Below the pieces are notes generated by a model, which had not been told where the DNA came from, searched no databases, and worked only from the letters and a program-made list of their open reading frames with translations. A program made the position numbers and the translations under genes. From Patescibacteria group bacterium (GTDB lineage Bacteria > Patescibacteriota > Patescibacteriia > Magasanikbacterales > GWA2-37-8), in contig JAKLGL010000001.1 of assembly GCA_022710645.1 (NCBI GenBank), forward strand, positions 473,296-529,000: DNA of 55,705 bases. Reading direction: 5' to 3'. Shown one piece after another: positions 22,824-55,705 of this stretch (its first letter is position 1; every line of letters begins with the position of its first letter).

Positions 22824-22845
22824 ATTAAAATTAAAATCAACCTCC

Positions 22846-24243
22846 TTAGCTATTATAAATTTTTTGTTTGATAAGTTCTATCTCTTGTCGCAACTTCATG
22901 TCTTTTTCAATTTCGGTTTTTATTTTTTCATGAGCGTGCATCGCGGTGGTATGGTCGCGACCGCCGAGTTCTTCACCGATAGAAGGATATGACATTTTCA
23001 AATCTTCTCTCAACATATACATGATAATCTGACGAGGAAAAGATAGTTTCTTTTCACGGCTTTTTCCCAAGAGGTCGTTAAGCGCCACATTATAAAATCC
23101 GCCGACCACTTCCGTTATTTGTTTGGGGGTAATCATCTTTTGACCTTGAGATGCCTCCACACTGCTCAAAATATTTTTGATTGATTCCGGAGTCGGTGTC
23201 ATATTTTTGAGCTGATGAAAAACTATGATTTTATTTAATGCGCCTTCCAACTCACGAATATTGCTTTGAACCGTAGACGCTATCAAAAATAAAGATTTTT
23301 CGCTTAATTCAAAATTCTTTTCTTCGCACTTCTTTTTCAAAATAGCCGCGCGAGTTTCAAAATCAGGAGAAGAGATGTCCGCAATCATACCCCATTCAAA
23401 ACGAGATTTTAAACGATCTTCAAGCATCGGTATGGCTTTTGGCGGTCTGTCGGAAGTTAAAACAACTTGTTTATTTTGTTGATGTAATTCGTTGAAGGTA
23501 TGAAAAAAAGATTCTTGAGTTCTATCTTTGCCGGCAATAAATTGGATATCGTCTATCAAAAGCAAATCTACATTACGATAACGATTTTGAAATTCTTTAG
23601 CCTTACCTTCTTGAACCGATTGAATAAAATCGTTGGAAAATTTTTCCGCGCTTACATAAACTATGTTGGCCGCGGGATTGTTTTTCAAAATAGAATTTCC
23701 AATAGCTTGTAATAAATGTGTTTTTCCCAAACCCACTCCGCCATAAATAAAAAGCGGATTATATGATTCACCCGGTTTACTAACTACTGCTTGTGCGGCA
23801 GCATAAGCCAATTCGCTTCCTTTTCCAACCACATAACTTTCAAAAACATATTTTGGATTCAAAGTAAAAGAAGAACCGGTATTGTTTTGATTTTTTAATT
23901 TATTACTAAAATTTTCCAAAACTGTTTCTTGTTTGTTTTCCAGATTGGCTTTGGCCGGGGCGCTAAAATCTATTTCATGTTCAACTACATTTTTGATATT
24001 ATCTATTTTATATTCCAATCTTTTTACAGGTCTCTCGGTAATTCTTTCCAAAGATTTTATTATCATTACGTGATATTTTTTCTCAAGCCAAGCTTTGGCA
24101 AAAGTATTGGGAACGCAAATCACCACTTGTCCGTCATTAATTGCCACAATACCGGTATTTTTAAACCAAGTTATAAAATTAGCTTTTGAAATGGAAAGCT
24201 CCAACTCAGCAAGTACTGCCTGCCAAACTTCGGTATTATTCAT
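22846..24243 (-). CDS. dnaA: chromosomal replication initiator DnaA
   Basis: GGVGLGKTHLLQAIGN Walker A, LLIDDIQF Walker B, C-terminal GGRDHTTAMHAHEKI DNA-binding signature. Confidence 0.97.
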   Translation of the reverse strand: MNNTEVWQAVLAELELSISKANFITWFKNTGIVAINDGQVVICVPNTFAKAWLEKKYHVMIIKSLERITERPVKRLEYKIDNIKNVVEHEIDFSAPAKANLENKQETVLENFSNKLKNQNNTGSSFTLNPKYVFESYVVGKGSELAYAAAQAVVSKPGESYNPLFIYGGVGLGKTHLLQAIGNSILKNNPAANIVYVSAEKFSNDFIQSVQEGKAKEFQNRYRNVDLLLIDDIQFIAGKDRTQESFFHTFNELHQQNKQVVLTSDRPPKAIPMLEDRLKSRFEWGMIADISSPDFETRAAILKKKCEEKNFELSEKSLFLIASTVQSNIRELEGALNKIIVFHQLKNMTPTPESIKNILSSVEASQGQKMITPKQITEVVGGFYNVALNDLLGKSREKKLSFPRQIIMYMLREDLKMSYPSIGEELGGRDHTTAMHAHEKIKTEIEKDMKLRQEIELIKQKIYNS

Positions 24244-41182: not shown

Positions 41183-41195
41183 TAAATTAAAAAGT

Positions 41196-41855
41196 ATGAT
41201 TGACGGCTCAATCTTCAAAAATATAAATAAAACAATCAGAATCGGTTTGATTGCGTTAGTTTTGATTTTACCGATTTCTGTGTTGGCAGCCATGTCTTCC
41301 ACCAATTATTATATTTATGCGGATTCGGTGGAGACTGGCGGGGGATTGAGCAGTGGCGGTCTTTATGATTTAGAAGATACTTTGGGTGAAGGAGTCATTT
41401 CACAAGCGAGCGGAGCGACTTACAACATTAACGCCGGTTACCAAGCTATGGTTTTGGGCTCTCTCTCGATGAATATAAATGACAATTCTATAGATCTTGG
41501 AGATTTGAATGTTTCCACTATTATTTCTGCCAGCACTACAGTGACAGTAACGACCGACGCACAAACAGGCTACACTATGTCGATTCAAAATGCCGTTTGG
41601 ACAGGAAATCCTTTGGCTGATGTTGTCGGAGGATCGGTAGATATAGGTCAAGAAGAATACGGAATAGCCGTGAGCGGAAGCGACGCTTTTTTTGGAGATG
41701 ATCGCGTCGTAACTTCTACGCAAATTTTGGCAACAAAAAATTCTCCGGCTACAGGCAGTCAAACAGTTGTTACTTTTAAAGCCGCCATTAGTCCGAGTAC
41801 AATTTCCGGTTCCAGAAGTCAAGCGGTGACCATTGGAGTTTCTGCAAATTTTTAA
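41196..41855 (+). CDS. secreted beta-rich protein, WxL-domain-like in pattern
   Basis: The track ORF starts at 41142 inside the previous gene; the Met at 41196 (MIDGSIF) follows its stop. Signal anchor IGLIALVLILPISVLA. IDLGDLNVS...TVTVTTDAQTGYTMSIQ and ...ISGSRSQAVTIGVSANF recall WxL surface proteins, but no literal WxL motif is present. Confidence 0.8.
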   Translation: MIDGSIFKNINKTIRIGLIALVLILPISVLAAMSSTNYYIYADSVETGGGLSSGGLYDLEDTLGEGVISQASGATYNINAGYQAMVLGSLSMNINDNSIDLGDLNVSTIISASTTVTVTTDAQTGYTMSIQNAVWTGNPLADVVGGSVDIGQEEYGIAVSGSDAFFGDDRVVTSTQILATKNSPATGSQTVVTFKAAISPSTISGSRSQAVTIGVSANF

Positions 41856-41856
41856 T

Positions 41857-42747
41857 ATGAAAAAAATAATTTTTTTCATTATTTGTTTGTTGTTTACTGG
41901 ATCTTTTTTGGAAGTTCGAGCTTTTACGGTTTCTCCGGTAAAACAGATTGTGACTTTGGAACAAGGTACGGGAAGAAATGTTAAAATTAAAATTCGCAAC
42001 ACAGAAAGGAATACGGCAAAATATAAAATTTCCGTAGTCGGAGTAAAACAAGACGATCAAGGATATCCGGTTTACGGCACAAATATAGAAGAAGCGGAAA
42101 AATGGGTAAGAAGCGAACAAGAAGTTTTGGAAATCGGACCAGGAAAAGAAATTGAAGCAAGTTTTAAAATAAATATTCCCAAAGGTACTTATCCGGGATC
42201 GCATTATGTGGGACTTAGCGCAGAACCGATGTTATTAGGAGATGAAAATAAAAATTTTATTGGTAAATTAATTTCTCTTTTGTTGATAGAAGTTTCGGGA
42301 ACGGTTAATGAAACTTTGAGTATAACAAAATGGTCCGGTGAAAAAAGTTTTTATTTAAGTTTGGAAAAATTAAAATTAAATGTCGGTTTAAAAAACGATG
42401 GAAATACCGAGTTGCCAATTAAAGGCAAAATACGATTGTATAATTGGTTGGATAAAAAAACAGCCGAAGGAGATGTTTTTTTAGGAAATACTATTTTACC
42501 GCAAGCCCAAAGAACCACGGAGGTATTATTGCCAGATTTTAATAATTGGCAATTGCCAGGAATATATAGAGCGCAGTTGGATTTAGTTTATGGTCGCACG
42601 GGACAAAAAATTTCAGTGCAATATGCTTTTTGGTATATATCGATTTATTGGTTGATTGCCATCGGATTGATTTTATCGATTGTTATTTGGACTTTGATTA
42701 AAAAAATAAAAAATAAAAGGGAAGAAGAAACACCGTTTAAAATTTAG
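41857..42747 (+). CDS. signal peptide + two Ig-like modules + C-terminal TM/basic tail (DUF916/DUF3324, CscA-like architecture)
   Basis: The Met at 41857 is 1 nt after the upstream stop. MKKIIFFIICLLFTGSFLEVRA signal peptide. FTVSPVKQIVTLEQG...VKIKIRN start. C-terminal helix WLIAIGLILSIVIWTLI followed by KKIKNKREEE. Confidence 0.85.
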   Translation: MKKIIFFIICLLFTGSFLEVRAFTVSPVKQIVTLEQGTGRNVKIKIRNTERNTAKYKISVVGVKQDDQGYPVYGTNIEEAEKWVRSEQEVLEIGPGKEIEASFKINIPKGTYPGSHYVGLSAEPMLLGDENKNFIGKLISLLLIEVSGTVNETLSITKWSGEKSFYLSLEKLKLNVGLKNDGNTELPIKGKIRLYNWLDKKTAEGDVFLGNTILPQAQRTTEVLLPDFNNWQLPGIYRAQLDLVYGRTGQKISVQYAFWYISIYWLIAIGLILSIVIWTLIKKIKNKREEETPFKI

Positions 42748-42762
42748 CTTGCTTGTCGCTAA

Positions 42763-43776
42763 ATGTATATGAATTCAACAAGGGGGAAAAATTTAAAAAA
42801 TATTTTTTACATCGGAATCATAATCGCGACATTATTTTTGTATAAAAACATAGCACAAACAGAAACACAAACCGGAAATATAAACGTAAACATGAACGTT
42901 GTCGCAAGCAGTACTCCTCCCGGAGGCGGACCGTCTGTTTCCGTGCCCTTTATTTATGATGTTAGAAGTAGTACGACAATGACTTCTGCGAAAATTGTTT
43001 GGAAAGTTAATGATTATGGTTATGGTTTAAACACTACAAGCGTGACGTATAGTATTGATTATTTTTTTGCAAATACAGCGCCGGCTATTGTTTCGGGCAC
43101 GGAATTTATAGCTGATATTTCAGGATTGCAATCCGATACGGTTTATAATTTTAGAATTCTTGCCAGAAATAATAGTTTTGTAGACGCCGTACCGGTGCAA
43201 AGCCAGTTTAAAACTCAAAAAGGAAATGTATTAAATAGTTTGACGATTTTGGCTAAACCGGAAAAAAGAGTTCCTAAAACAGGTGGTAATTTTGGCGCTA
43301 CAGCCAGTTTAATTTTTTATGATACGGTTTCAAATACTATTTTAATGAGCACCTCTACAATTTTGAGTTCTTCAGGAACAACCACTATATATAATGTAGA
43401 AGTTCCACTTATAACCAATTCGGCTGTGATTTTAAAAACGAATGCTCATTTAGCCAAAAGACTAAACGGAGTAAATACAAATGTTACGGATTTAACTTTG
43501 GATTTTACTGAAAACGGTATTGTTTATTTGTTAGCCGGAGATATGGCCGGAGATTTGCAAAATCCGACTGCGCAAAATCCGTTTACCCAGTTTTTACAGA
43601 GTGTTCACCAAGACGAGTTTGTGGATATTTTAGATATTTCATCCGTAGTTTCCAAATTCAACGATCAAACGGCGGGGGAAAGAGCCAATCTGAACGGTGA
43701 TAGTATCGTAGACGCTCAAGATATTAGTGTTGTTCTTGGAAATTGGAACAAAGAAGGAGACATTATTGTTAAATAA
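42763..43776 (+). CDS. anchored FN3-domain protein with C-terminal dockerin-like module
   Basis: FN3 pattern IYDVRSSTTMTSAKIVWKV...GLQSDTVYNFRILARN. C-terminal duplicated Ca-binding-like segments AGDMAGD...FVDILDISSVVSKF and NLNGDSIVDAQDISVVLGNW. Confidence 0.85.
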   Translation: MYMNSTRGKNLKNIFYIGIIIATLFLYKNIAQTETQTGNINVNMNVVASSTPPGGGPSVSVPFIYDVRSSTTMTSAKIVWKVNDYGYGLNTTSVTYSIDYFFANTAPAIVSGTEFIADISGLQSDTVYNFRILARNNSFVDAVPVQSQFKTQKGNVLNSLTILAKPEKRVPKTGGNFGATASLIFYDTVSNTILMSTSTILSSSGTTTIYNVEVPLITNSAVILKTNAHLAKRLNGVNTNVTDLTLDFTENGIVYLLAGDMAGDLQNPTAQNPFTQFLQSVHQDEFVDILDISSVVSKFNDQTAGERANLNGDSIVDAQDISVVLGNWNKEGDIIVK

Positions 43777-43850
43777 AGTTTATTTTACAATTTTTAGTTT
43801 TTGAATGATTTTTGAAAATTAAAAATTAAAAATTAAAAAATTAGACAAAT

Positions 43851-46433
43851 ATGTTTTTCAAAACAAAAATTTATATAGCGAGTTTGGTGGCGGGTTTGTT
43901 TTTTTCCGCGCCGGCTTTAGCAGCTACTTTTCATTTGTCTCCTTCGTCCGGAACTTTGATAAAAAATTGTAACAAAACAATCGAGGTGTTGATGGATGTC
44001 GATTCCCTAAAACAGAGCAATGCCGCCCAGATATATATAGATCATGATTTTATTTCCGGAGAAAGTGTTTCTCTGTCCGGAGCTGGTTTGTTTGCCAGCT
44101 ATGGAATTCCAACTCCTTTATCATCCGGTAGAATCGGTCTTTACGGATATACCAATAATATTTCCGGAACAGATAGAGTTTTTGCCAGAGTAACACTCAG
44201 AAGCGGTAATGTCGGAGCAATCAGAAATTTAAACATTCATTTTAACAACGCTGAATCCGTAACTTCCAAAATCGCCGATTTGGATAGTAATAATATTTTG
44301 ACAGGAGTTATTTCCGGCAGTTATACCGTTGTTGACGGATATTGCGAAACAGTTCCTCCATATTTGAGTAATATGAATCCGGCAGCGGACAAGCCTAACC
44401 ATCCGGTAGGGGATAATATTATTTTTGATTTAAAAGACGATAGTTCGGGAGTAAATATTGCGACTCTGGGAATTACTTTAAAACAAAACGGAACAGATGT
44501 TCCCTTTAATTTAACTACTACAAAAGTTAATCCCGGAGATGATAAAATTTATGCTATCACTATTGATCCGACAAGTGATTTAATCCGTGAAGTTAGAGTA
44601 GATGTTACTGTTACCGCTCAAGACAAGGCCGGTAATGTTATGAACCGTTCTTATAGTTTCAATGATTTAACTTGCGAACAACTCGGTTGTTTTGCCGCTC
44701 CGGTTGTTACTTCGACAGTAACAACCACTTGTCCTGAATGTAATTTTGTTTGTGAAGCCGGAACCACTACGGTGACTTCGACAGTCACTACTACACTGAC
44801 ACAAACGCTTTCTCTGCAAAATAACATAATGCCGATACATTTTTATTTGGATAATCGCGCGGTCGAAGCGACGATTTTTGGCGATGATGAAATTAGCGCT
44901 CTCGGTGGAACGGTTTTTACAGTGGCGGCTGATACTTTAAATTTGAACGAGTCAATTAATTCCGCTAAATTAATTTTAGAAGGTCGTGAATATCCGATGT
45001 TTTATGATAACAGTTTGAAAATGTATTCAACGGATATTTCCGATTTGGTAACCGCCGGATTTTATCAAGCGAGTTTACAGGTTAATTACGGTGCTGATCA
45101 AAATATAATTTCTAATTTTACCATCTCAGTTTTGAATCGCGGTTATGTGAATTTGAAAACCGCCAAAACAACCAGTCCTTTTTCCGGAGTGATGGTTTCT
45201 TTACAAAGGCTGGTCGATGGTGAATATTCTTTGATTAAAAAAATAAATACTGACGATAACGGAACTTACGGTTTCGTGGTGCCAAACGGAAATTATCGTC
45301 TTGTTTTTGAAGCTCCGAATTTTGATACAACTTATACCAGCGGTTTTTCCGTAGAGAATAATATTATTAATCGTACCCATACTTTTATAGAATCGGTTAG
45401 TTTACTTGATCCTGAAATTAGTTTAACGGAAAAAGCCGATTATCTTGCGGGTATTGTCGGAGGTAGAGGTCAAGAAATTATAGAATTAACCAACGATCCT
45501 CAGGTAGAAAAAGCTATACAAAATTATGCTGCGCCCATAGCTCTTGGTGCTGCCTTGGCGGCCACGGCTCCGGCATTATCTTTGATAAATTTATTATCTT
45601 ATTTGAGATTTTTATTCTTGCAACCTATTTTATTACTCGGTTTGCGTCGTCGCAAGAAATGGGGAGTCGTTTATGATTCTTTGACAAAATTACCGGTTGA
45701 TTTGGCAGTAATTCGTTTGCTTGATGCCAATACCAATAAAATTGTTCAATCTCGTGTAACAGACGCAAAAGGCAGGTATGTATTTTTGGCCAATCCCGGG
45801 ACTTATCGTTTGGTTGTTGAAAAACAAAAATTTATTTTTCCTTCTAAAATTTTACAAGATTTTAAAGAAGACACCACTTTCTTGGATATTTATCATGGAG
45901 AAATTATTCACGTTGATGAAAACTATACCATTATTGCCGCCAACATTCCGCTTGATACCGCAGGAGCTGAGGAAAAAACTCCTCGACGCATTATCATTGA
46001 TAAACACTGGAGAAGTTTTCAAAATTTTGTAGCATCATTGTCCGTGGCCGCCGGTATATTGTCGGTTATAATCACTCCGACTTGGTGGACAGTGCTTTTA
46101 TTGTTATCGCAAATTTTACTTTACTATTTATTCAAGCGTGTAGCTATACCGAAAAAACCGAAAAGCTGGGGTATTGTTTATGACAGAGACACCAAAAAAC
46201 CGGTTGGTAGAACTATAGCCAGATTGTTCAGTAAACAATTCAATAAATTGGTTTCTACGGAAATCACTGACAATTCCGGACGCTACTCTTTCATGGTCGG
46301 TCCGAGCGATTATTATGTGACTTTTGAAAAGACAGGTTATCAAAAAGCCACAACGCCGGATATCAAGATAAAAGAAAAAGACGAAGTTATAAAAGTGGAC
46401 ACAGCCATGGAAAAAACTAAAGAAAATTTTTAA
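43851..46433 (+). CDS. cohesin-like domain protein with Ig-like region, Thr-rich linkers, TM blocks and three CarboxypepD_reg-like domains
   Basis: 860 aa. Signal peptide ...FFSAPALA. Cohesin-like ATFHLSPSSGTL...IEVLMDVDS...NAAQIYIDHD...GSYTVV. Domains of the DDNGTYGFVVPNGNYRLVFEAPNF, DAKGRYVFLANPGTYRLVVEKQKF and DNSGRYSFMVGPSDYYVTFEKTGY type. Two hydrophobic blocks. Confidence 0.9.
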   Translation: MFFKTKIYIASLVAGLFFSAPALAATFHLSPSSGTLIKNCNKTIEVLMDVDSLKQSNAAQIYIDHDFISGESVSLSGAGLFASYGIPTPLSSGRIGLYGYTNNISGTDRVFARVTLRSGNVGAIRNLNIHFNNAESVTSKIADLDSNNILTGVISGSYTVVDGYCETVPPYLSNMNPAADKPNHPVGDNIIFDLKDDSSGVNIATLGITLKQNGTDVPFNLTTTKVNPGDDKIYAITIDPTSDLIREVRVDVTVTAQDKAGNVMNRSYSFNDLTCEQLGCFAAPVVTSTVTTTCPECNFVCEAGTTTVTSTVTTTLTQTLSLQNNIMPIHFYLDNRAVEATIFGDDEISALGGTVFTVAADTLNLNESINSAKLILEGREYPMFYDNSLKMYSTDISDLVTAGFYQASLQVNYGADQNIISNFTISVLNRGYVNLKTAKTTSPFSGVMVSLQRLVDGEYSLIKKINTDDNGTYGFVVPNGNYRLVFEAPNFDTTYTSGFSVENNIINRTHTFIESVSLLDPEISLTEKADYLAGIVGGRGQEIIELTNDPQVEKAIQNYAAPIALGAALAATAPALSLINLLSYLRFLFLQPILLLGLRRRKKWGVVYDSLTKLPVDLAVIRLLDANTNKIVQSRVTDAKGRYVFLANPGTYRLVVEKQKFIFPSKILQDFKEDTTFLDIYHGEIIHVDENYTIIAANIPLDTAGAEEKTPRRIIIDKHWRSFQNFVASLSVAAGILSVIITPTWWTVLLLLSQILLYYLFKRVAIPKKPKSWGIVYDRDTKKPVGRTIARLFSKQFNKLVSTEITDNSGRYSFMVGPSDYYVTFEKTGYQKATTPDIKIKEKDEVIKVDTAMEKTKENF

Positions 46434-46440
46434 TTTTTTG

Positions 46441-46471
46441 TTGCCATTCTGTGTTAAAAATAGAATGGCAA
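46441..46471 (+). terminator. hairpin between the cohesin gene and the giant ORF (weak terminator, no T-run)
   Basis: ttgccattct-gtgttaaaaat-agaatggcaa. Confidence 0.35.
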
Positions 46472-46495
46472 AGTTAATTAAAAATTAACAAATAT

Positions 46496-49400
46496 ATGTT
46501 TAAAAAATTTATAATAGCCTTTTTGGTGGTTGGTATAGTTTCCATAACCGCGGTTGTTTGGTCTGCTAGTCCACCGCCGATTATTTCTTACCAAGGTAAA
46601 TTATTGGTTGGCGGAAATCCCGCTACCACAACATTGCCGATGGTTTTTGAAATTTATGATGCTTTATCCGGGGGTACATTATTATATACAGCATCTGGAA
46701 CACTGCCTGTCACATCGACTATTGATGTTTTACCTGTGCGCGGTTTGTTTACCGTGAATCTTGGTGATACTGGCACCAATCCTATTGATCAGGAGATTTT
46801 CAAAAACAATACCGATTTGTACATGCAGGTGACTATAAACGGAGAAACACTTTCTCCTCGTAAAAGAATTTCTTCAGCGCCGTATGCCATGAATTCTAAA
46901 TATTTGGATGGTAATTTTGCCACATCTTCTCCCACTACCACCAAATATATTCCCATCTCCGATACATTTGGAAATTTTGAACTGCGAGATGTTACTTCTA
47001 CCAACTTATATATAATAGGAAATGTAACAGCCAATACGGTTTCCGCCACAGCTTTTACATTAAACGGCGATACTATCACATCTTGGCCGACCGGTGGGGG
47101 ATCTTTACCAACTGGCATTAGCGGTCAACTCTTGATTCACAATGGATCGGATTGGATAGCCGGTAACACCTTTACCACCACCACGATTGTCAGAGATATT
47201 TTACCTGATATGACCGGAGGGTTGGGAAATGTGAGTTTGTATTCTCTTGGTAATACAACTTCACGTTTTGCGGAAGGTTGGTTTGAAAATATTTATTTGG
47301 GAAGTTCTACTTGGAAATTTAGTCAAGACGGAAGTGGAAATTTAAATATTTTGAACAACGGCACTTCAAATGGTTTATATATCGCAGCTAATGGAAATGC
47401 CGGTATCGGAGATGCTAACGTTTCGACAAAGTTTTTAATAGATAATCCGCAAGACGAAATTGAATTAATAAACGACAATAGCATGCCGAATTTTATAGCT
47501 CCATCATATGATATCGTGGTTGTGGGGGATGTGGCCTATACTATAAAAGAGACGGATTTTTCTATTTATGATATCAGTGATAGGACCAATCCTATTTTAA
47601 TTTCTTCAACCAGCTCTCTTGCCAACGCTGCTTGTTTGGAAATTTCGGGAAATTTTGCGTATATCGGCGATAGAGATACAGGATCTGGAGCTCACTTTGC
47701 TATAATTGATTTTACCAGTTCAACTGATATGCAAATGGCGGTTTATGCGTCATTGGGAGGAGATCCTCGAAATTCCAAGGTGGTTGGAAATATGCTTTAT
47801 TTGGTTTCGCCGGGAGGTAGTGGCGAACAGCTTATTAAAGTGGATATTACCAACCCATATGCGCCTTCAGCTGTTGGAAGTATAAATTTGATCGGAACAG
47901 AAGGTAAAGACATAGATGTTAGCGGAGGATATGCATATGTTGCCGAGGATAATTATTTGGAAATAATAGATGTAAATTCTTTTGTTACTACCTCAGTAGC
48001 TTCTATTTATGCAAATTCGGATGTGAAGATTTCCGGAAATTATGCCTATATGGCTGAATCGGGCGGGGGATTAAGAATTTTGGATATTTCCACTCCACTT
48101 TCTCCGGTTGATGTTGGTTTAGTAGAATCTGATTATGGAAAAGTTTGGAAGATAAAAGTAGTAGGTAATTATGTTTATGCTACAATTGATGGTCGAGGAG
48201 TAGAAGTCTTTGATGTTTCAAATCCGACAACTCCTTTTTCAGTAGCTTTTTATGATACCAGTTTTGGTCCTCAAAATATTGATGCGGACACCAATAGGTA
48301 TATATATGTAGATGCGCCAAAGCCAACTTTGATTTTACGATTTAATCCTGTAGTTGGAGGCGCGGCTCCTTATGCAGCTATATTCAACGGGGGTAAAGTT
48401 GGTATTGGTACCACGACTCCCGGACAGAATCTTTCCGTGGTAGGAAATATCGGTGCCACCAAAGGAATATATTTGGGATATGATAGTGAGCCTATAAATA
48501 CCGGGTATGGTTTATATAGCAGGGGAGGACAGTTATATTGGGACGGTTCGCCTGTTGGAGGATCTTCTTTGCCATCTGGTTCAACTTACGGCGATATGAT
48601 GTATTGGGACGGAGGTAATTGGCAAGCAAGCGGTATTCTTCGTTTAAATCCTTCCTATACTAATATTTCAATGGACGGAAACACTAATTATGGTAATAAT
48701 AGTGTTGCTTTCGGCTACGGAAATACTAATTACAGTTATACAGGTGCTGTTTTTGGTTATGGAAATTCAATTTATAGTGGAACCAGTTACGCATCTATTT
48801 TGGGAGGACAATATAATACTATTAGTAATAATTCTCCTTACTCATCTATAGTAGGAGGAAACGGAAATTCTGTTTCAGCTTGGGCTCAAGGTGCGGTGAT
48901 TGCAGGTGGTTTGTATAATTCAATAGGTTGGAGCTCCTCACAATCTTTTATTGGTGGGGGTGCCTATAATAGTACAGCTGGGCAGTCTCCTTTTATTGGA
49001 GGAGGTTATTCAAATTATGCGGCCAATAATTATGCTTCTATAGTTGGTGGTTATGACAATACTGCATCTGGCCAATATTCTACACTTGGTGGTGGCTATC
49101 AAAATAATGCTTCTGGGTATATGTCTGTAGTTGGTGGTGGTAGCGGCAATGTACCTACAGCAAATTATTCCGGTATTTTTTCCGGTCAAAACAACACTGC
49201 ATCTGGCCAATATTCTTTTATCGGTGGTGGTGGAGGAAATTATACTTCTGCTGATTATTCAGCTGTAGTCGGAGGTTATAGTAATCAAGCTACCGGCCAA
49301 TATTCTTTTGTGGGCGGTGGTTATGGAAACAACGCGGCTGGTAATTATTCTTCGGCTTTTGGTTATGGAACAGTAGTAGGAGGTAGTAATTCTTTTGGTA

Positions 49401-52400
49401 TAAACCTAAACACTTCCGGTTTTACTCTCAGCCAAGCCAACACTATGGCTATTATGAACGGTTATGTCGGTATCGGTACCACTACTCCTGCTTATCCTTT
49501 GACCGTCCAAGGTAATGTAAATATTACCGGACAATATTTGATAAATGGTGTTCCATTAAGCGGAGGAAGTAGCCAGTGGAGTACTGTTGGAAACAATATT
49601 TCAAATAGCAATTCCGGTAACGTGGTTATCGGTACGGACCAAACGATTTTAGGAATGACTCCTGAAAGTATCACTGATATGGTAGCAAACAGTCGCTATA
49701 ATAAGGGGCTTTTTGTTGTAAACAACATACTTTATTTTTGTGACTATAACAGCGGTTTGCGAATTTACAGTTTAAATTCCACCACTCCGGAACTTCTCGG
49801 TACTTATAATTACGGAGGAGGAATGTATCCTTTATCAAATGTTTATGTTTCCGGGAAATATGCTTACCTGACTTATGGTTATTTTTTTGTGATAGTTGAT
49901 ATTTCTGACCCTGCTAACCCTGTTTATCAAAGCAGTGCTTTTTCTAGCGGTAGTTCTGCCGGCTATAAAGACGTGGTAGCAGAAGGTAAATATGCATATG
50001 TTGTCGGTAGTGAAGGGTTTAAATTAATAGATATTTCCAATCCGAAAATTCCGGTGATTGTCCGTAATATCACTTCTTTAAATACAGGTTTCAATATAAA
50101 AATTTCCGGTGACTATGCTTATATAGCAGACGGTTCAGCCGGCTTGAAAATTTTTGATATTCGAGATGTAAATAATATTTTTCAAGTAGGCAGTTATCCT
50201 TCCGGAGGCACAATGAGTGCTCTTGAAATAAGAGGTGACTATGCTTTTATCGCCGATGGTTTAACTGGAGGGGCTTTTATATTAGATATTAAAAATAAAA
50301 CCAGCCCCGCGTTTGTTTCCAGTTTTCCCAGTGTTTTTAGAGCAGATGATATAGCGGTAAATGATAATTATGTATTTGTCGCAGCTGCAGCCGGAGGTGT
50401 TAGAATTTACAATATAGAAAATATTAATTCTCCGCTTTGGGTAAATACCATAGCGACTTGGAATGCATATGGTTTAAATATGTATGGAACTAAGTTATTA
50501 GTGGCTTTATACAGATCTCCAAATCAATTGTATATTTATCAACTTCAAGGATTAAAAGCAAATTCAGCCAAAATAGCCACAGCGGAAATTGACAGGTTGT
50601 CTGTTTTTGGTGATGCTGATTTCAATGGAAAAATTACTGTTAGAAATTCTTTAACAGTAGGTAAAGAAGGAATTATTTCTATGGGTCCGATACAGTCGGG
50701 CTACGGAGTTTATTTAAACTCTTCAACTCCGGCTACAACAAGTTATGCATTGTATAATCTTGGAGGTAATCTTTATTGGAACGGATCACCGGTTGGAGGA
50801 TCTGGTTCACTGCCTTTTGGTTCAATTGGTCAAACAATGCGTTATGGTAATTCTGGTTGGGAAGCGACCAACAATGTTTTTGTTTCTTCTTCTGGATATG
50901 TTGGTATTAATACAACAACCCCTAACTATCCTTTGAGTGTGCAAGGTGACATAAATATAACTGGACAGTATAGAATAAACGGAGTGCCGTTGAGTGTCGG
51001 GGGAGGAGTTCCGGCCGGATCAAACACTCAGATTCAATTCAACGATTCCGGTTCGTTTGGAGCTACTTCAACTTTTGTTTGGGATAATATAAACGGAAGA
51101 TTGGGGATAGGAACGTCAACTTCAAACTCTAAATTAACTTTAGATAATGATGGTGGAATTTTAGCTATAGGAAATTTTGGTAGTGGAAATACAGTTATAC
51201 CATCAGGTGCTGGAACAAGATTAATTTGGTTACCTTATCAAGGTGCTTTTAGAGCTGGTTATAGTAATGGAACTGTTTGGGATTATAGTAATATAGGGTC
51301 ATTTTCTGTAGCGTTTGGTTCTGGTAATAGAGCAAGTGGATATGCGTCAGCTGTTTCTGGTGGTAGTTTAGGAGTTGCTTCTGCGTATTATTCTTTGGTA
51401 GGTGGTGGTCTGCAAAATACTGCTAGTGAAAGATTTTCTGCAGTAGTTGGCGGTAATGCTAATACTGCTGCAGCAACTTCTTCTTTTGTTGGTGGTGGGT
51501 ATTTTAATAGAACGTATGGAATGTATTCATCTGTTGTAGGTGGTTATAGTAATATAGCTTCTGGAGATTCTTCTTTTGTGGGAGGAGGGCAATATAATGA
51601 TGTGAGCGGATCCAGTTCTGTGGCTCTTGGTAATAAAATGATTGTTTCCGGAAATTATTCTTTTGGCGTTAATGTTAGTAATACTTATGCATTTTTAAAT
51701 CAAGATAATACAATAGCTTTACTTGGCGGAAACACTGGTGTTGGTACTACTACACCGAGCTATCCTTTGAGTGTACAAGGTGATATAAATATAACTGGAC
51801 AGTATAGAATAAACGGAACACCTTTGAGTGTTGGCGGATCTTTACCTTCCGGAGTAATTGGTCAAACACTTATAAATGCCGGTGGTTCAACATGGAATCC
51901 TACCAACACTTTGTTTGTAAACGGTAACGGAGTAAGTATTGGATTTTTAAGTACTAGTACGGAAAGATTATTGTCTGTTCATGGTGACGCAGTAATCAAC
52001 GATCAATTGATTTCCAATCAAGAAGGCGGTTTATATTTTGGTCGTACTAGACTCTCGGAAAATATTTGGAATATTGGAAGTACTACTATTTGGGTAACTT
52101 CTACAGCTAAAATGACAGATCAAAATAGAAATTGGAGTTCTGTAGCCATGTCTTCTAATGGTCAATATCAATCAGCAGCAGTGTATAATGGATACGTTTA
52201 TATTTCCTCAGATTATGGAAATACTTGGGCGACTAGCACGGCAGCCGGCTCCAGAAGATGGAACGGAATTTTTATGTCTTCAGACGGTAAATACCAAACC
52301 GGAGTTGTTGGTTCTGGTTATATCTACACCTCATCTGATTATGGTAATACATGGGCGGAAAAAAAGAATGATTCAACAAGAGATTGGCGTTCAGTTTCTA

Positions 52401-55400
52401 TGTCTTCAGATGGTAAATATCAATCTGCGGTTGCAAATGGAGAATATATTTATGTTTCATCTGATTATGGAAATACTTGGACAAATAAAGAGTCTATAAT
52501 TAAAAATTGGGTTTCTGTGGCCGTTTCTTCAGATGGTAAGCGTCAGGCTGGAGCTGTTAGTAGTGGTTATATCTATCTTTCCTCAGATTATGGAAATACT
52601 TGGACGACTAGCACGGCAGCTGGTTCTAGAAGTTGGTACGGCTTATCCATGTCTTCAGATGGAAAATACATTTCCGCTATAATAACAGTAGGACAATTTT
52701 TAGTCTCTTCTGATTACGGAAATAGTTGGACCACTGTTTCTCCAAGTGCAAACTGGAGATCTATTACTATGTCAGCTGACGGTAAATATCAAACAGCTGG
52801 CGCTTATAGCCCTGCTGTTAATAGAATTTATGTTTCAGATGATTATGGAAGAAATTGGTATTTGAAATCTTTTTCTGGTGCGGCTGAATATCGTGGTATG
52901 GCTATGTCAGCTGACGGTAAATATCAAACAGCCGTTAATTATGGAGGTTATATTCAAACTAATGTTGCAGGTTCGTATTCTTTTGGGAATATTGGTGTTG
53001 GTACAACTACTCCTGGTTATGAATTAACTGTTCAAGGAAATATTAATTTTACAGGAAATATTTATCAAAACGGTTCATTGTTTTCCGGTGGAGGCGGTGG
53101 GACTCCAGGAGGTTTAGATGGGGAAATCCAATTTAATAATTCCGGTTCATTTGGTGCTACGTCCAGTTTCTTTTGGGATAAAATAAATGGAAGATTGGGG
53201 ATAGGAACTTCAACTCCTGGTTTTAAATTAACCATGAATAATGATGGCGGCATATTGGCTATAGGTAGCGGAGACGGTTTATTTAATCAGCAGGGAGCAG
53301 ATTTGGCTGTTACCGGTACTGGCACTAGAATGATTTGGTATCCAAAAAAAGGAGCTTTTAGGGCCGGCGGAGTTATTGATCCAAGTACTATAGGATTTCC
53401 GACAAATAATATAGATCAGTGGGATGATGATAATATTGGAGCTTTGTCTTTTGCAGCTAATTTGAGTAATATGGCTCGTGGCGGAGGCTCAACAGCTTTT
53501 GGTTTGGTAAATAATGCTTTGGGAGACATTTCTTTTGTCGGAGGTACTAACAATACTTCAAGCGGGTTTGCTTCTGTAGCTTTTGGTCGCGGTAATATTT
53601 CTTCTGCCACAAGTTCAGCAGTTTTTGGTACGGCCAATGAATCTTCTGGAGAAAATTCTTTTGTGACAGGTTTTTTAAACACTGCAAGTGGCAATAATTC
53701 TTTTGTAGGTGGTACGTACTCTTCAGCTCCTGGAGAAGATTCTTTTGCTTATGGTCAATATGCCATAGCTTACGGCTCCAGGTCTTTTTCTTTGGGAAGT
53801 TACACTCAAGCAGCTACAGGGTCGGTTGCTATTGGTAGTGGATCATTTTTAAACCCAACATGGGCAAGTGGCTTACAGTCTGTAGCTATCGGTAGTCCGT
53901 CACAAGCCAGCGGTTATCAAGCTGTAGCTATCGGTTATGGTGCTGGAGGTCATGCGACAGGTTCTATTGCTTTGGGAAATGTTGGAATTCGTGCCGGAGC
54001 TAATTATTCAATTGGTTTAAATGCAAGTTCGTCTTTGTTTAACATGTATACTCCGAATGTTATCGCATTAATGGGTGGAAACGTGGGTATTGGTACTACT
54101 TCTCCATTATTGAAATTATCAGTAAAAACAACCAACCCTCAAGATGGTATCGGTGTTTTTGATAATAATAACCGATTGGTTGCTGGTTTTGGTGCAGATC
54201 AATTTGGTTCTGGAGCTTTTGGAATATTTAATGGCACAAACAGAGTGATTACTTTGGATGGTGCTTCATATTCATATATTAATTCTGGAAATTTTGGTAT
54301 CGGTACTTCCACCCCGTCTTCAATGCTCACTATCCTTGGTAACGGTTCCACTGACCTCTTTTCTGTAGGTACTTCCACCAGTCGAGAATTATTAGCCGTC
54401 ACTGCTTCTGGTTCAGTTAAATTTATGAACGGAATGTTGGTTGTTGATACTACTGCTTTAAATACTGCCCGTTTAGCAGGCAGCGCTCTTGGTACAAGTG
54501 TCCTTATCGAAGCCGGTCTTGGTCAAGATGATTTCTTCTATCCGTTATTACCTGAAGGTACCAGTTGGAATGGGGGAGATTTAATCTTAAACCCTGGCGG
54601 TATGTTTGATTGGTATGGTGGTAACGGTCTCAATATCCGTCGTGGTAATGTATATATCGCCAGCTCCAGTTACGCTGCCAACGGTGGTAGGGTGGTTGTA
54701 GGAGATGGTACGGTCTTACCAGCCCAAAGATTTACTTTGGAAGGTGGTATATATAGTTATTCCTCATTTGGTTTAAATAAAGATACAATGGATGATTCTT
54801 TCTTAGTTGAAAACGCCGCTCAATTTATCTGGCATCCTAAATCCGCTTCTTTACGCGCCGGCTTCTTTACTGATACTTCAACTGTAGCAGAATCTAACTT
54901 AGGTAACTATTCCTTTGGTCTCGGTTATGATGTCACAGCTTCTGGCAACTATTCTTACGCTTTTGGTAGAAATATGGATGTTAGCGGTGTTGGCTCTTTC
55001 GGTATTAACCTTAAATCTTTCTCCAAAACACTGTCTCAAGACAATACCCTGGCTATTTTTGGCGATTATGTAGGTATCAACACTTCCACCCCGGGTTCCA
55101 CTTTTGTGGTTCAAGGTGATGCAGAAATTTATGGTAATTTTACAGTTTGTGTTTCTCCCGGAGTTTGCGGTTATGTCAGTTCCACCGATGGTAGTTGGTA
55201 CACTTCTTCAGATATCAGTTTAAAGAAAAACATTACTGATTTTACCGGAGGTTTGGACAAAGTTTTGGCTATGCGTCCGGTCGGTTATGAATTTAATAAT
55301 GAAGCTGATGCTAACGGCACCTCTCATATCGGTTTCATCGCCCAAGAAATGGAACAAATCTTACCGCAAATCGTTGGTTCAAACAAAGTCGGTCTCAAAT

Positions 55401-55705
55401 CCATTTCTTACGCCAATCTTACTCCTATCTTAGTGCAAGCTATCAAAGAGCAACAAGCCCAAATCGATGCTCTCAAAACTGCCACTGCTACTCTAACCGT
55501 AGAAAACAGCAGTAATCAAATCCTCTATACCGTAGATATCGGTATGGATATCGCCGGTCGACCCCTACTTAATGTCGCCTCCATTATTGGCGCTAACAAC
55601 AAATGGGAGATAGATATCAACGGCACACTCATCACCAAAATCACCACTGCTTCAGGAGAAGAAAAGAAACTTTACGGTATGAGTTCGGAGAATGTGGAGA
55701 TAACG
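46496..55705 (+). CDS. giant modular surface protein, 3' partial (more than 3070 aa; runs off the window)
   Basis: Read codon by codon from ATG 46496: there is no TAA, TAG or TGA in this frame through base 55705 (9210 nt = 3070 codons). It is absent from the track only because no stop lies inside the window. N-terminal anchor MFKKFIIAFLVVGIVSITAVVWSA. Coherent repeat and domain structure throughout. Confidence 0.9.
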   Translation, partial: MFKKFIIAFLVVGIVSITAVVWSASPPPIISYQGKLLVGGNPATTTLPMVFEIYDALSGGTLLYTASGTLPVTSTIDVLPVRGLFTVNLGDTGTNPIDQEIFKNNTDLYMQVTINGETLSPRKRISSAPYAMNSKYLDGNFATSSPTTTKYIPISDTFGNFELRDVTSTNLYIIGNVTANTVSATAFTLNGDTITSWPTGGGSLPTGISGQLLIHNGSDWIAGNTFTTTTIVRDILPDMTGGLGNVSLYSLGNTTSRFAEGWFENIYLGSSTWKFSQDGSGNLNILNNGTSNGLYIAANGNAGIGDANVSTKFLIDNPQDEIELINDNSMPNFIAPSYDIVVVGDVAYTIKETDFSIYDISDRTNPILISSTSSLANAACLEISGNFAYIGDRDTGSGAHFAIIDFTSSTDMQMAVYASLGGDPRNSKVVGNMLYLVSPGGSGEQLIKVDITNPYAPSAVGSINLIGTEGKDIDVSGGYAYVAEDNYLEIIDVNSFVTTSVASIYANSDVKISGNYAYMAESGGGLRILDISTPLSPVDVGLVESDYGKVWKIKVVGNYVYATIDGRGVEVFDVSNPTTPFSVAFYDTSFGPQNIDADTNRYIYVDAPKPTLILRFNPVVGGAAPYAAIFNGGKVGIGTTTPGQNLSVVGNIGATKGIYLGYDSEPINTGYGLYSRGGQLYWDGSPVGGSSLPSGSTYGDMMYWDGGNWQASGILRLNPSYTNISMDGNTNYGNNSVAFGYGNTNYSYTGAVFGYGNSIYSGTSYASILGGQYNTISNNSPYSSIVGGNGNSVSAWAQGAVIAGGLYNSIGWSSSQSFIGGGAYNSTAGQSPFIGGGYSNYAANNYASIVGGYDNTASGQYSTLGGGYQNNASGYMSVVGGGSGNVPTANYSGIFSGQNNTASGQYSFIGGGGGNYTSADYSAVVGGYSNQATGQYSFVGGGYGNNAAGNYSSAFGYGTVVGGSNSFGINLNTSGFTLSQANTMAIMNGYVGIGTTTPAYPLTVQGNVNITGQYLINGVPLSGGSSQWSTVGNNISNSNSGNVVIGTDQTILGMTPESITDMVANSRYNKGLFVVNNILYFCDYNSGLRIYSLNSTTPELLGTYNYGGGMYPLSNVYVSGKYAYLTYGYFFVIVDISDPANPVYQSSAFSSGSSAGYKDVVAEGKYAYVVGSEGFKLIDISNPKIPVIVRNITSLNTGFNIKISGDYAYIADGSAGLKIFDIRDVNNIFQVGSYPSGGTMSALEIRGDYAFIADGLTGGAFILDIKNKTSPAFVSSFPSVFRADDIAVNDNYVFVAAAAGGVRIYNIENINSPLWVNTIATWNAYGLNMYGTKLLVALYRSPNQLYIYQLQGLKANSAKIATAEIDRLSVFGDADFNGKITVRNSLTVGKEGIISMGPIQSGYGVYLNSSTPATTSYALYNLGGNLYWNGSPVGGSGSLPFGSIGQTMRYGNSGWEATNNVFVSSSGYVGINTTTPNYPLSVQGDINITGQYRINGVPLSVGGGVPAGSNTQIQFNDSGSFGATSTFVWDNINGRLGIGTSTSNSKLTLDNDGGILAIGNFGSGNTVIPSGAGTRLIWLPYQGAFRAGYSNGTVWDYSNIGSFSVAFGSGNRASGYASAVSGGSLGVASAYYSLVGGGLQNTASERFSAVVGGNANTAAATSSFVGGGYFNRTYGMYSSVVGGYSNIASGDSSFVGGGQYNDVSGSSSVALGNKMIVSGNYSFGVNVSNTYAFLNQDNTIALLGGNTGVGTTTPSYPLSVQGDINITGQYRINGTPLSVGGSLPSGVIGQTLINAGGSTWNPTNTLFVNGNGVSIGFLSTSTERLLSVHGDAVINDQLISNQEGGLYFGRTRLSENIWNIGSTTIWVTSTAKMTDQNRNWSSVAMSSNGQYQSAAVYNGYVYISSDYGNTWATSTAAGSRRWNGIFMSSDGKYQTGVVGSGYIYTSSDYGNTWAEKKNDSTRDWRSVSMSSDGKYQSAVANGEYIYVSSDYGNTWTNKESIIKNWVSVAVSSDGKRQAGAVSSGYIYLSSDYGNTWTTSTAAGSRSWYGLSMSSDGKYISAIITVGQFLVSSDYGNSWTTVSPSANWRSITMSADGKYQTAGAYSPAVNRIYVSDDYGRNWYLKSFSGAAEYRGMAMSADGKYQTAVNYGGYIQTNVAGSYSFGNIGVGTTTPGYELTVQGNINFTGNIYQNGSLFSGGGGGTPGGLDGEIQFNNSGSFGATSSFFWDKINGRLGIGTSTPGFKLTMNNDGGILAIGSGDGLFNQQGADLAVTGTGTRMIWYPKKGAFRAGGVIDPSTIGFPTNNIDQWDDDNIGALSFAANLSNMARGGGSTAFGLVNNALGDISFVGGTNNTSSGFASVAFGRGNISSATSSAVFGTANESSGENSFVTGFLNTASGNNSFVGGTYSSAPGEDSFAYGQYAIAYGSRSFSLGSYTQAATGSVAIGSGSFLNPTWASGLQSVAIGSPSQASGYQAVAIGYGAGGHATGSIALGNVGIRAGANYSIGLNASSSLFNMYTPNVIALMGGNVGIGTTSPLLKLSVKTTNPQDGIGVFDNNNRLVAGFGADQFGSGAFGIFNGTNRVITLDGASYSYINSGNFGIGTSTPSSMLTILGNGSTDLFSVGTSTSRELLAVTASGSVKFMNGMLVVDTTALNTARLAGSALGTSVLIEAGLGQDDFFYPLLPEGTSWNGGDLILNPGGMFDWYGGNGLNIRRGNVYIASSSYAANGGRVVVGDGTVLPAQRFTLEGGIYSYSSFGLNKDTMDDSFLVENAAQFIWHPKSASLRAGFFTDTSTVAESNLGNYSFGLGYDVTASGNYSYAFGRNMDVSGVGSFGINLKSFSKTLSQDNTLAIFGDYVGINTSTPGSTFVVQGDAEIYGNFTVCVSPGVCGYVSSTDGSWYTSSDISLKKNITDFTGGLDKVLAMRPVGYEFNNEADANGTSHIGFIAQEMEQILPQIVGSNKVGLKSISYANLTPILVQAIKEQQAQIDALKTATATLTVENSSNQILYTVDIGMDIAGRPLLNVASIIGANNKWEIDINGTLITKITTASGEEKKLYGMSSENVEIT
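47506..48350 (+). other. LVIVD-repeat beta-propeller module 1 of the giant protein
   Basis: Repeats of the type GDVAYTIKETDFSIYDISDRTNP, GNFAYIGDR, GGYAYVAEDNYLEIIDV, GNYAYMAESGGGLRILDISTPLSP, GNYVYATIDGRGVEVFDVSNPTTP. Confidence 0.65.
48671..49410 (+). repeat. Gly-rich Hep_Hag/YadA-head-like repeat block 1
   Basis: Degenerate ~14-aa units: SIVGGYDNTASGQYSTLGGGYQNNASGYMSVVGGGSGN..., ASGQYSFIGGGGGN, ATGQYSFVGGGYGN. Confidence 0.6.
49700..50555 (+). other. LVIVD-repeat beta-propeller module 2
   Basis: GKYAYLTYGYFFVIVDISDPANPV, GKYAYVVGSEGFKLIDISNPKIPV, GDYAYIADGSAGLKIFDIRD, GDYAFIADGLTGGAFILDIKNKTSP, DNYVFVAAAAGGVRIYNIENINSP. Confidence 0.7.
51299..51680 (+). repeat. Hep_Hag-like repeat block 2
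   Basis: SVAFGSGNRASGYASAVSGG..., SLVGGGLQNTASERFSAVVGGNANTA, SSFVGGGYFN, SSVVGGYSNIASGDSSFVGGGQYN. Confidence 0.6.
52130..52965 (+). repeat. BNR/Asp-box beta-propeller module (about 41-aa period)
   Basis: Six Asp-boxes, SSDYGNTW (x4), SSDYGNSW and SDDYGRNW, alternate with W.SV.MSSDGKYQ half-blades. Confidence 0.75.
53441..54025 (+). repeat. Hep_Hag-like repeat block 3
   Basis: STAFGLVNNALGDISFVGGTNNTSSGFASVAFGRGNISSATSSAVFGTANESSGENSFVTGFLNTASGNNSFVGGTYS... Confidence 0.6.
55205..55477 (+). other. Peptidase_S74-type intramolecular chaperone auto-processing domain (phage tail-fibre/endosialidase type)
   Basis: WYTSSDISLKKNITDF..GLDKVLAMRPVGYEFNNE......HIGFIAQEMEQILPQIV....LKSISYANLTPILVQAIKEQQAQIDALK, with the S-D-x-x-x-K Ser/Lys dyad spacing. 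Confidence 0.75.

Follow-up and report, generated by a model that had tools for sequence, protein, structure and literature searches.

What is encoded in the apparently empty last 9 kb of this stretch of DNA? The window, the whole 55,705 nucleotides (nt) from a Patescibacteria group bacterium analysed here, has no entry longer than 113 aa in its list of open reading frames (ORFs) past position 46433, which gives this end of the window the appearance of a gene desert. To our knowledge, it is largely unknown how Candidate Phyla Radiation bacteria (CPR, Patescibacteria), with their small genomes and their dependence on other cells, recognise their hosts and keep hold of them. We conclude, with a probability of about 0.7, that the region carries a functional chromosomal CPR gene for a secreted, cell-attached homotrimeric mosaic adhesin fibre of ~3,250 residues, which would follow the principle of phage tail fibres and of the mosaic adhesive trimer (MAT) fibres of Bdellovibrio. 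The product (in the following, the fibre) begins with a leader and a conserved N-domain, continues with β-propellers and head blocks separated by a recurring motif, and ends in a Peptidase_S74 (S74) intramolecular chaperone domain, a β-sandwich termed here the end-module, and an acidic tail.

One gene in place of a gene desert

From the ATG at 46496 the plus strand can be translated for 3070 codons without a stop, and the frame is still open at the window end (55705). The closest upstream in-frame stop is a TAA at 46475, and this ATG is the first start past it. Given the base composition, a stop-free run of 3070 codons would arise by chance with P ~1e-91. Across these 9.2 kb each of the remaining five frames is interrupted by 150-259 stops and stays open for at most 66-117 codons. 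A coding score was based on the codon usage of 11 further window genes, set against base composition. The frame reaches a mean of +0.288 bits per codon, with positive values in ten of ten 1-kb blocks (0.19-0.32), and the score is negative in all five alternative frames; for the 11 training genes it is 0.26-0.60. One real gene fills what looked like a 9-kb gene desert, and it is absent from the ORF list because the lister drops ORFs that run off the source.

An earlier reading of the letters without database searches (the sequence-only reading) had proposed that 3070 codons without a stop follow the ATG at 46496, that the gene is hidden solely for want of a stop in the window, and that the product has an N-terminal signal anchor and is rich in Gly, Ser, Thr, Asn and Tyr. 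Translation reproduces the frame, the lister indeed omits open-ended ORFs, a hydrophobic N-terminal leader can be read from the sequence, and the computed composition (G 14.4, S 12.0, N 8.5, T 7.9 and Y 5.9%) agrees with the description. The same reading named a coding potential no better than that of the other frames as grounds for giving up the gene; only the claimed frame is positive.

Assembly support and the 3′ end

The protein encoded directly upstream (860 aa) is present on at least five other contigs of independent assemblies (JGI, ENA, Logan), all of which stop within the fibre gene, 763 to 2784 residues in. Five other assemblies are 100% identical to the window at the nucleotide level over 2.3-8.4 kb (at most 8353 nt), and since this identity extends over the whole shared length, the first 8.3 kb of the gene are reproducible. 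That CPR assemblies break up in a surface-protein gene has been seen before (PMC6851277). Near-identical internal repeats were considered as the cause of the breaks and ruled out: the DNA repeats inside the gene, among them the 45-nt periodic D1 and the ~126-nt D2-D4, are only 60-81% identical, and at this divergence they can neither account for the breaks nor bring about mis-joins.

The sequence-only reading had suggested extending the contig to the true C-terminus. A database protein, P0001 (422 aa), begins at an internal Met that corresponds to fibre residue 2828, matches the final 243 residues encoded in the window with 100% identity and runs on for another 179. Since the relatives L086-L089 (61-68% identity) share the P0001 tail and end at the equivalent position, a full length of 3249 aa is predicted. 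A second continuation is provided by the contig L091 (33.9 kb), which shares its sample with L002 and is of similar coverage. Its first 56 nt are the last 56 nt of the window (55650-55705), in frame. The end-module and tail encoded there (L091 1-572) are ~53% identical to the P0001 tail, and the full length would be 3241 aa. As two continuations follow one 56-nt junction, the window end is a branch of the assembly graph, and the two tails represent either strain alleles or alternative C-terminal cassettes, or a paralogue that shares the S74 region. Depending on the tail, the predicted full length is 3241-3249 aa. A look-up of the exact P0001 product returned no contig, and public genome and metagenome scans did not yield the 3′ DNA of the fibre gene, the C-terminal piece giving relatives of at most 68% identity only and no match from the same strain.

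Module architecture of the product

Full-length relatives were obtained by an exhaustive search of 1.84 billion representative proteins with a profile of the N-domain, and all architecture counts refer to the closest 141 new representatives, analysed with hidden Markov models (HMMs) built here. Structures were predicted with AlphaFold2 (AF2) and compared with Foldseek. The resulting map of the fibre, in window coordinates, is as follows.

46496-55705 (+), ORF, 3′ incomplete (no stop; coding potential; five assemblies; P0001)
46496-46570 (+), N-terminal leader, aa 1-25 (MFKK, 18 hydrophobic residues, SAS), MFKKFIIAFLVVGIVSITAVVWSAS; Sec signal peptide or signal anchor (sequence)
46571-46915 (+), conserved N-domain, aa 26-140, predicted β-sandwich (family alignments A1/A2, profile, AF2)
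46916-47485 (+), unassigned Gly/Thr/Asn-rich segment, aa 141-330, presumed fibre shaft (common to 7 of 141 relatives)
47486-48370 (+), LVIVD β-propeller 1, aa ~331-625 (PF08309, 5 stretches, E 2.6e-34)
48401-48436 (+), putative capping-loop motif 1, aa 636, GIGTTTPGQNLS (motif search, as for motifs 2-9)
48563-49450 (+), YadA/UspA1-like head block 1, aa ~690-985 (PDB 3pr7, UspA1 head, E 3.3e-16 over aa 848-947; 45-nt D1 repeats)
49469-49504 (+), putative capping-loop motif 2, aa 992, GIGTTTPAYPLT
49613-50695 (+), LVIVD β-propeller 2, aa ~1040-1400 (PF08309, 4 stretches, E 1.1e-29)
50903-50938 (+), putative capping-loop motif 3, aa 1470, GINTTTPNYPLS
51104-51139 (+), capping-loop-like motif 4, aa 1537, GIGTSTSNSKLT, without the Pro
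51158-51730 (+), YadA/UspA1-like head block 2, aa ~1555-1745 (PDB 3ntn, UspA1, E 2e-5 over aa 1632-1811)
51737-51772 (+), putative capping-loop motif 5, aa 1748, GVGTTTPSYPLS
51893-52990 (+), BNR/Sortilin-Vps10-type β-propeller, aa ~1800-2165, six strict SSDYGNTW-type Asp-boxes (PF15902 E 1.1e-15; PF15899 E 5.2e-13; ~126-nt repeats D2-D4)
52994-53029 (+), putative capping-loop motif 6, aa 2167, GVGTTTPGYELT
53198-53233 (+), putative capping-loop motif 7, aa 2235, GIGTSTPGFKLT
53258-54085 (+), YadA-like head block 3, aa ~2255-2530 (PF05658 YadA_head, 41.9 bits against a cut-off of 25; PDB BpaC 7o23, Hep_Hag 3s6l)
54086-54121 (+), putative capping-loop motif 8, aa 2531, GIGTTSPLLKLS
54296-54331 (+), putative capping-loop motif 9, aa 2601, GIGTSTPSSMLT
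54332-55072 (+), unassigned segment before S74, aa 2613-2859, presumed distal β-helix or short head block (common to 8 of 141 relatives)
55073-55108 (+), putative capping-loop motif 10, aa 2860, GINTSTPGSTFV, 45 aa before the S74 Ser (aligned to tail fibre 8jov)
55184-55486 (+), Peptidase_S74 intramolecular chaperone, aa 2897-2997 (PF13884)
55208-55210 and 55223-55225 (+), codons of Ser2905 and Lys2910 (SDISLK; alignment)
S74 end to aa ~3003, short coiled-coil-like stretch
55505-55705 (+), end-module, aa 3004-3152, begins in the window and is clipped by its end (own HMM, AF2, Foldseek)
Beyond the window, acidic E/T/S/P tail, aa 3153-3249 (E 26%, T 16%, S 12%, P 10%)

The propellers and head blocks exceed the thresholds of their families. 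LVIVD (PF08309) gives 153.9 bits over seven stretches, above the curated threshold, the BNR-type propeller reaches 57.9 bits against 33 for PF15902 and 48.1 against 27 for PF15899, and the YadA-type head repeats score 28.1-41.9 bits against the PF05658 cut-off of 25. Besides UspA1, the PDB matches of the head blocks include CbpF in addition to BpaC and Hep_Hag. The two unassigned segments gave no family match, for aa 141-330 none above noise and for aa 2613-2859 none at all. In the relatives the same leader is followed by a small-residue site and then by the N-domain, and cleavage of the leader is probable. In the whole protein, including the part known from P0001, there is no YadA_anchor, no LPXTG motif and no C-terminal transmembrane segment.

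A recurring motif that resembles the capping loops of trimeric fibres

Eight GIGT-type sites had been reported from the sequence, and all of them can be located (nt 48401, 49469, 50903, 51737, 52994, 54086, 54296 and 55073); with two further sites at 51104 and 53198 the count is 10. For the loose form of the motif these 10 occurrences compare with 0.32 expected (maximum of 4 in 5000 shuffles), and for the strict form, G[IVL][GN][TS]xxPxxx[LFIVM], nine are observed against 0.005 expected. Solved structures of MAT fibre tips show capping loops at the edges of trimeric β-helices, with the consensus V-G-G/N-π-x-x-P-x-x-x-L, and myelin regulatory factor (MyRF) carries the same loops upstream of its S74-type domain (PMC10769870). 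The fibre motif, (V/I)G(I/V)(G/N)T(T/S)(T/S)Pxxx(L/F), fits this consensus in its G/N-small-x-x-P-x-x-x-L core, and the last copy lies 45 residues ahead of the S74 serine, an arrangement as in the MAT protein Bd3182. The pattern, taken together with the MAT literature (PMC10769870), suggests that the motif is better read as a β-helix capping loop, each copy of which would mark the start of a β-helix or stalk segment. The motif does recur between modules, and domain and motif mapping agree on the modular build that had been proposed, but the earlier description as a linker is given up insofar as it implied a flexible one. The proposal of a fibre-like surface structure gains from the S74 domain, the YadA/UspA1 head repeats and the match to the MAT and MyRF capping loops.

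The S74 domain and the C-terminal cassette

The S74 domain is recognised by PF13884 with 50.7 bits in the whole protein and 54 bits in P0001 (cut-off 22). Its SSDISLKKNI stretch aligns with ASDERLKREI of tail fibre 8jov, SSDRRIKKDI of phage S16 gp37 (6f45) and PADLRAKEHV of MyRF (7dc3), and GFIAQE aligns with GFIAQQ, GLIAQE and GVIAQE of solved S74-type proteins. The SDxxxK dyad (S2905-D-I-S-L-K2910) is intact, which according to Caulton et al. (2024) and earlier phage work is the self-cleavage site (PMC10769870), so that by analogy the fibre would be expected to cleave itself at Ser2905. The domain is followed by 252 residues and does not lie at the extreme C-terminus, the canonical position, at which about 100-150 aa are released. 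The arrangement recurs in the family, since 14 of the 141 relatives contain S74 and in all 14 it is followed by 200-550 residues.

The AF2 model of the end-module (predicted local distance difference test, pLDDT, 84.5) is a β-sandwich, for which the best PDB match found with Foldseek is the cyanophage Pam1 tailspike (E 6.5e-4), followed by H-type lectins, the fibre tips of a pyocin and of AP22, and the C-termini of Klebsiella depolymerases. In a viral library 19 matches reach E <= 1e-3, almost all of them minor tail or tail fibre proteins. The structural matches are modest, with TM-scores of 0.3-0.5. The end-module is present in 66 of the 141 relatives, always near the C-terminus and always with a tail of 50-240 residues behind it that is rich in Glu, Pro, Thr and Val and has neither a transmembrane segment nor a conserved terminal motif. 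Ahead of it stands either S74 (6 relatives) or another module (61), and always one of the two. This alternative module (GRVPxKVTxENGxIxxGDxL...) precedes the end-module at L088 2-1036, L007 1965-2819, L071 4723-5514, L127 2474-3313 and L020 2628-3428. In L088 it matches Peptidase_G2, the phi29-type autoproteolytic chaperone, with 24.3 bits, just under the cut-off of 25, and a Pfam scan of the module in three other relatives gave no match; the label "G2-like" is accordingly a tentative one.

Since the dyad is conserved, and the end-module is conserved rather than variable, we favour the view that the end-module is a released pro-region. Alternatively, the end-module may stay on the fibre as a distal lectin tip. 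In that case S74, or the G2-like module, would be an internal trimerisation clamp, or would cleave but stay bound, while the end-module would be the receptor-binding tip and the acidic tail a spacer or solubiliser. The fold of the end-module, which resembles H-type lectins and the distal domains found in tail fibres and tailspikes of phages, is in line with such a tip, as are its rank as the most conserved C-terminal element of the family and the two end-module alleles behind one junction, which are expected of a swappable tip. Moreover, those Bdellovibrio MATs that lack S74 end in β-sandwich tips (PMC10769870). However, both the catalytic Ser and the Lys are conserved, and the characterised S74 proteins all release the part C-terminal to the Ser (PMC10769870). 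In addition, a receptor-binding tip is expected to vary, yet the end-module is the conserved part, and its Foldseek matches are weak. We therefore regard the retained tip as unlikely and keep to the released pro-region in the following.

The N-domain and its family

At E <= 1e-3 the N-domain profile picks out 71,879 clusters, and at E <= 1e-10 it still picks out 36,143, so that the fibre is one member of a very large and for the most part undescribed family. In all 141 closest relatives the domain lies directly behind the leader, at residues ~40-170. These relatives have a median length of 1464 aa, and 101 of them have at least 1000 aa, 39 at least 2000 and 12 at least 3000, the longest reaching 4591 aa. 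The size of the fibre is thus ordinary for the N-domain family, and the statement that proteins of this size are rare in small genomes does not hold for this lineage. Between the ends the composition changes from member to member: LVIVD blocks are common to 46-58 of the 141 relatives, the BNR propeller to one only. With conserved ends and a shuffled interior, the family is a mosaic as judged from its sequences.

The AF2 model of the N-domain is a β-sandwich (pLDDT 81.9, above 90 over residues 10-90) without a PDB match at E <= 1e-3, and the N-domain of MATs is likewise without a structural homologue in the PDB (PMC10769870). The NCBIfam model of the latter, NF053851 (Bdello_MAT_N), matches the fibre weakly, with E 1e-3 to 4e-3 and 17-19 bits (cut-off 60) over ~27 residues. 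Within the N-domain family 21 of 24 members match it, with a best E of 7.6e-7 and all of them under the cut-off. The N-domain is probably a remote homologue of the MAT N-domain; we do not take the matches as membership in that family. Several short Patescibacteria proteins of ~320-350 aa (P0096-P0099, P0101, P0104, P0108-P0110; alignment A1) have this N-domain too, and behind it a Cys-containing domain with ACCK at its end, indicating that the N-domain is also joined to small cargo other than fibres.

The proposed fibre and competing explanations

In the proposed mechanism the leader would send the chain through Sec, and the N-domain would retain the fibre at the cell surface, as has been proposed for MATs. 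The C-terminal S74 region would nucleate and proof-read trimerisation, which would proceed from the C- to the N-terminus, and S74 would then cleave itself at Ser2905 and free a fragment of ~345 residues that comprises S74, the coiled coil, the end-module and the tail. The mature beaded fibre would display nine propellers (three levels of three) and several head blocks as ligand-binding sites, through which the small cell could grip a partner cell or a polymer surface. By analogy with the related fibres we infer trimerisation, a surface location and a ligand, and with these an attachment to the host. Several points weigh against the proposal. S74 is internal, whereas characterised S74 proteins end in S74, and cleaving off the end-module would be odd if it were the receptor-binding tip. 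The similarity to the MAT N-domain is far under the NCBIfam cut-off and short. The two alternative tails leave the exact 3′ end of this particular gene unfixed. The propellers could be enzymatic or structural, with a weak BNR "glycosylhydrolase" family match. Finally, the envelope architecture of CPR bacteria is poorly known, and no anchoring partner is identified.

The possible enzymatic role of the propellers leads to a different explanation, according to which the product is not mainly an adhesin but a secreted or surface-bound enzyme complex that degrades polysaccharides or cell walls, or an S-layer-like structural component of the envelope, with catalytic or scaffolding propellers. S74 was first found on endosialidases and depolymerases, which speaks for an enzyme, as do the weak match of the BNR segment to the "glycosylhydrolase" NCBIfam model and its match to Sortilin/Vps10. 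Furthermore, a link to cell-wall degradation has been drawn for large proteins of predatory bacteria (10.1101/2023.11.21.568195). However, no catalytic family exceeds its cut-off, the dominant modules (YadA head, LVIVD and capping-loop β-helix) are those of adhesins and fibres, and conserved ends around a variable interior are what a family of differing binding specificities shows, which makes an enzyme or S-layer component improbable.

It is very improbable that the gene encodes the tail fibre of a prophage, a tailocin or an extracellular contractile injection system, as the S74 domain, the many S74 matches named "tail fiber domain-containing protein" and the tail-fibre-like folds might suggest. 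The flanks are housekeeping genes, neither the 46 kb upstream nor the 10 kb downstream contain genes of a phage or an injection system, and the product has a Sec-type leader, which is absent from virion proteins. In addition, neither the N-domain nor the end-module has a tblastn match in 50,697 phage records, whereas ~72,000 clusters contain the N-domain right behind a leader. An assembly chimera or decaying pseudogene that mimics one ORF is likewise very improbable, since, although all available contigs end within this repeat-rich gene and the window end is a graph branch with two continuations, five independent assemblies are base-identical up to 8353 nt, the repeats are too diverged for mis-joins, the 3070 codons contain no stop and show a uniform coding bias, and the order N-domain, S74, end-module is that of full-length relatives, so that a mis-join is possible only in the last 0.4-1.2 kb.

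Genomic setting

The fibre gene is chromosomal and belongs to a CPR bacterium. The lineage is indicated by the names of the relatives of its N-terminal 335 residues, which are Candidatus Magasanikbacteria and "Patescibacteria group" metagenome-assembled genomes (43-58% identity). The window (GC ~35%) contains dnaA, dnaN, a class A penicillin-binding protein (PBP1), H+-pyrophosphatase, trigger factor, polA, holA, rmuC, rpsT and five tRNAs, and past the L091 tail BacA, a class II aminoacyl-tRNA synthetase, ThiI, IscS and NifU follow. Among the tRNAs, a tandem tRNA-Ser pair (anticodons TGA and CGA) lies at 7269-7487 (+), and tRNA-Cys, tRNA-Arg and tRNA-Ala are found elsewhere in the window. With dnaN and dnaA at 21693-24243 (-) and a change in the sign of the GC skew at ~28-32 kb, the window adjoins the replication origin; the fibre gene sits on the positive-skew arm. 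Directly upstream of the fibre gene, and on the same strand, lies the following set.

38885-46433 (+), co-directional set of five genes
38885-41182 (+), polytopic membrane protein with TPR repeats, 765 aa
within 38885-46433 (+), 237-aa protein
within 38885-46433 (+), 304-aa protein, weak WxL-interacting/Fn3-like similarity, transmembrane segment at the C-terminus
within 38885-46433 (+), 337-aa protein with a dockerin-like end
within 38885-46433 (+), 860-aa protein with three CarboxypepD_reg domains and internal transmembrane segments

Three of the encoded proteins bear N-terminal leaders. By their sequences all five look like envelope proteins, and the set may form one operon with the fibre gene. 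The sequence-only reading spoke of a surface-assembly cluster, which overstates the case: these are membrane and secreted proteins, without recognised assembly machinery among them. In the 62-nt gap before the fibre start there is a hairpin (46443-46469) with an 8-bp stem (GCCATTCT, 11-nt loop, AGAATGGC), which has no T-run behind it and was not called by the terminator scan; promoter and terminator scanning of 46200-46700 returned nothing. Paralogues of the fibre's family do not occur elsewhere in the window. A protein of 970 aa (8069-10981, -) with four Lamin-tail domains, a PKD domain and an OB-fold is probably extracellular as well, and a Wzy_C (O-antigen ligase-type) protein (1105-2409, -), together with the TPR polytopic protein at 38885-41182 (+), hints at the assembly of a surface glycan.

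Relation to known systems

Among known systems the S74 subgroup of the Bdellovibrio MAT fibres comes closest, with phage S74 tail fibres next and, as regards the head blocks, the trimeric autotransporter adhesins (TAAs). In the MATs of Bdellovibrio bacteriovorus, such as Bd3182 (PMC10769870), a signal peptide likewise precedes a conserved β-rich N-domain of ~130 aa, to which the sequence similarity found here is remote. Shared with the fibre are also β-helix segments of the trimer type with recurring capping loops that end in P-x-x-x-L, an SDxxxK S74 chaperone/protease, a mosaic interior of swappable parts, and an owner that is a small bacterium living on other cells. By contrast, the fibre is about three times as long as the ~1000-aa MATs, with three β-propellers and YadA-type head blocks added, and carries ~250 residues (coiled coil, lectin-like sandwich and acidic tail) after S74, where MAT S74 proteins end. 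It belongs to a CPR bacterium, which presumably has no outer membrane, and its N-domain match remains under the family cut-off.

With the phage S74 fibres and tailspikes (K1F endosialidase, T5 pb1 and S16 gp37; PDB 3GW6, 4UW8 and 6F45) the fibre shares the Ser/Lys pair, GFIAQE, the upstream capping loop, the logic of a trimeric fibre and, in the end-module, a fold like that of phage fibre tips, but its gene lies in a chromosome among housekeeping genes, outside any virion context, and the product has a Sec leader and an internal S74. The TAAs YadA, UspA1 and BpaC have the same type of head repeats (UspA1 E 3.3e-16; YadA_head above cut-off) in a beads-on-a-string arrangement. Since the YadA_anchor β-barrel is missing, the fibre is not a type Vc TAA; trimerisation is presumably driven by S74, and anchoring would be N-terminal and not C-terminal. 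The ICA domain of MyRF, an S74-type domain with an upstream β-helix that has the same capping motif, belongs to a eukaryotic membrane-bound transcription factor of unrelated biology. The giant proteins of Omnitrophota and other predators or symbionts (10.1101/2023.11.21.568195) are comparable in being very large, modular and extracellular, in occurring in ultra-small host-dependent bacteria and in breaking assemblies, but they have 5,000 to 85,000 aa and other sets of domains (dockerin, TSP3, transmembrane-rich), whereas the fibre has ~3.2 kaa and is of the S74 type.

MAT-like proteins of 481-1001 aa have been listed for Micavibrio, Ca. Uabimicrobium, Ca. Omnitrophica and Dokdonia, and none of them for Patescibacteria (PMC10769870, Supplementary Table S3). 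In a full-text literature search no paper was found in which S74 or intramolecular chaperones are connected with CPR bacteria or Patescibacteria. Relative to the known S74 fibres the internal position of S74 and the embedded propellers are new, which does not make the fibre a categorically new system.

Implications for CPR biology

Through the fibre gene a CPR chromosome is linked to the S74/MAT principle, which is established by experiments on phages and Bdellovibrio, and testable predictions follow, namely trimerisation, cleavage at S2905, and propellers and head blocks that act as binding sites. The result at the level of the family may outweigh that for the single gene, since ~72,000 clusters contain the N-domain and most full-length close relatives share the cassette of chaperone and end-module. 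This offers a handle for the annotation of many large "hypothetical" surface proteins of CPR bacteria, and a candidate determinant of host range. As assemblies break inside such genes and ORF lists drop open-ended frames, they are systematically missed or truncated.

A wider and more doubtful possibility, which we put forward tentatively, is that these proteins form a vast undescribed class of surface organelles of CPR/Patescibacteria, and perhaps of other ultra-small symbionts: cell-anchored, phage-fibre-like trimeric "grappling" fibres with a MAT-like N-domain, a shuffled interior and a conserved C-terminal cassette, the latter consisting of an autoproteolytic chaperone of the S74 or G2 type, a lectin-like sandwich and an acidic tail. 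If this were true, the cassette may be a new device for maturation or export, or a released lectin, and the two tails that follow one junction would be a sign of cassettes being exchanged within populations. The fibres would then, instead of or alongside type IV pili, set the host range of episymbiotic CPR bacteria.

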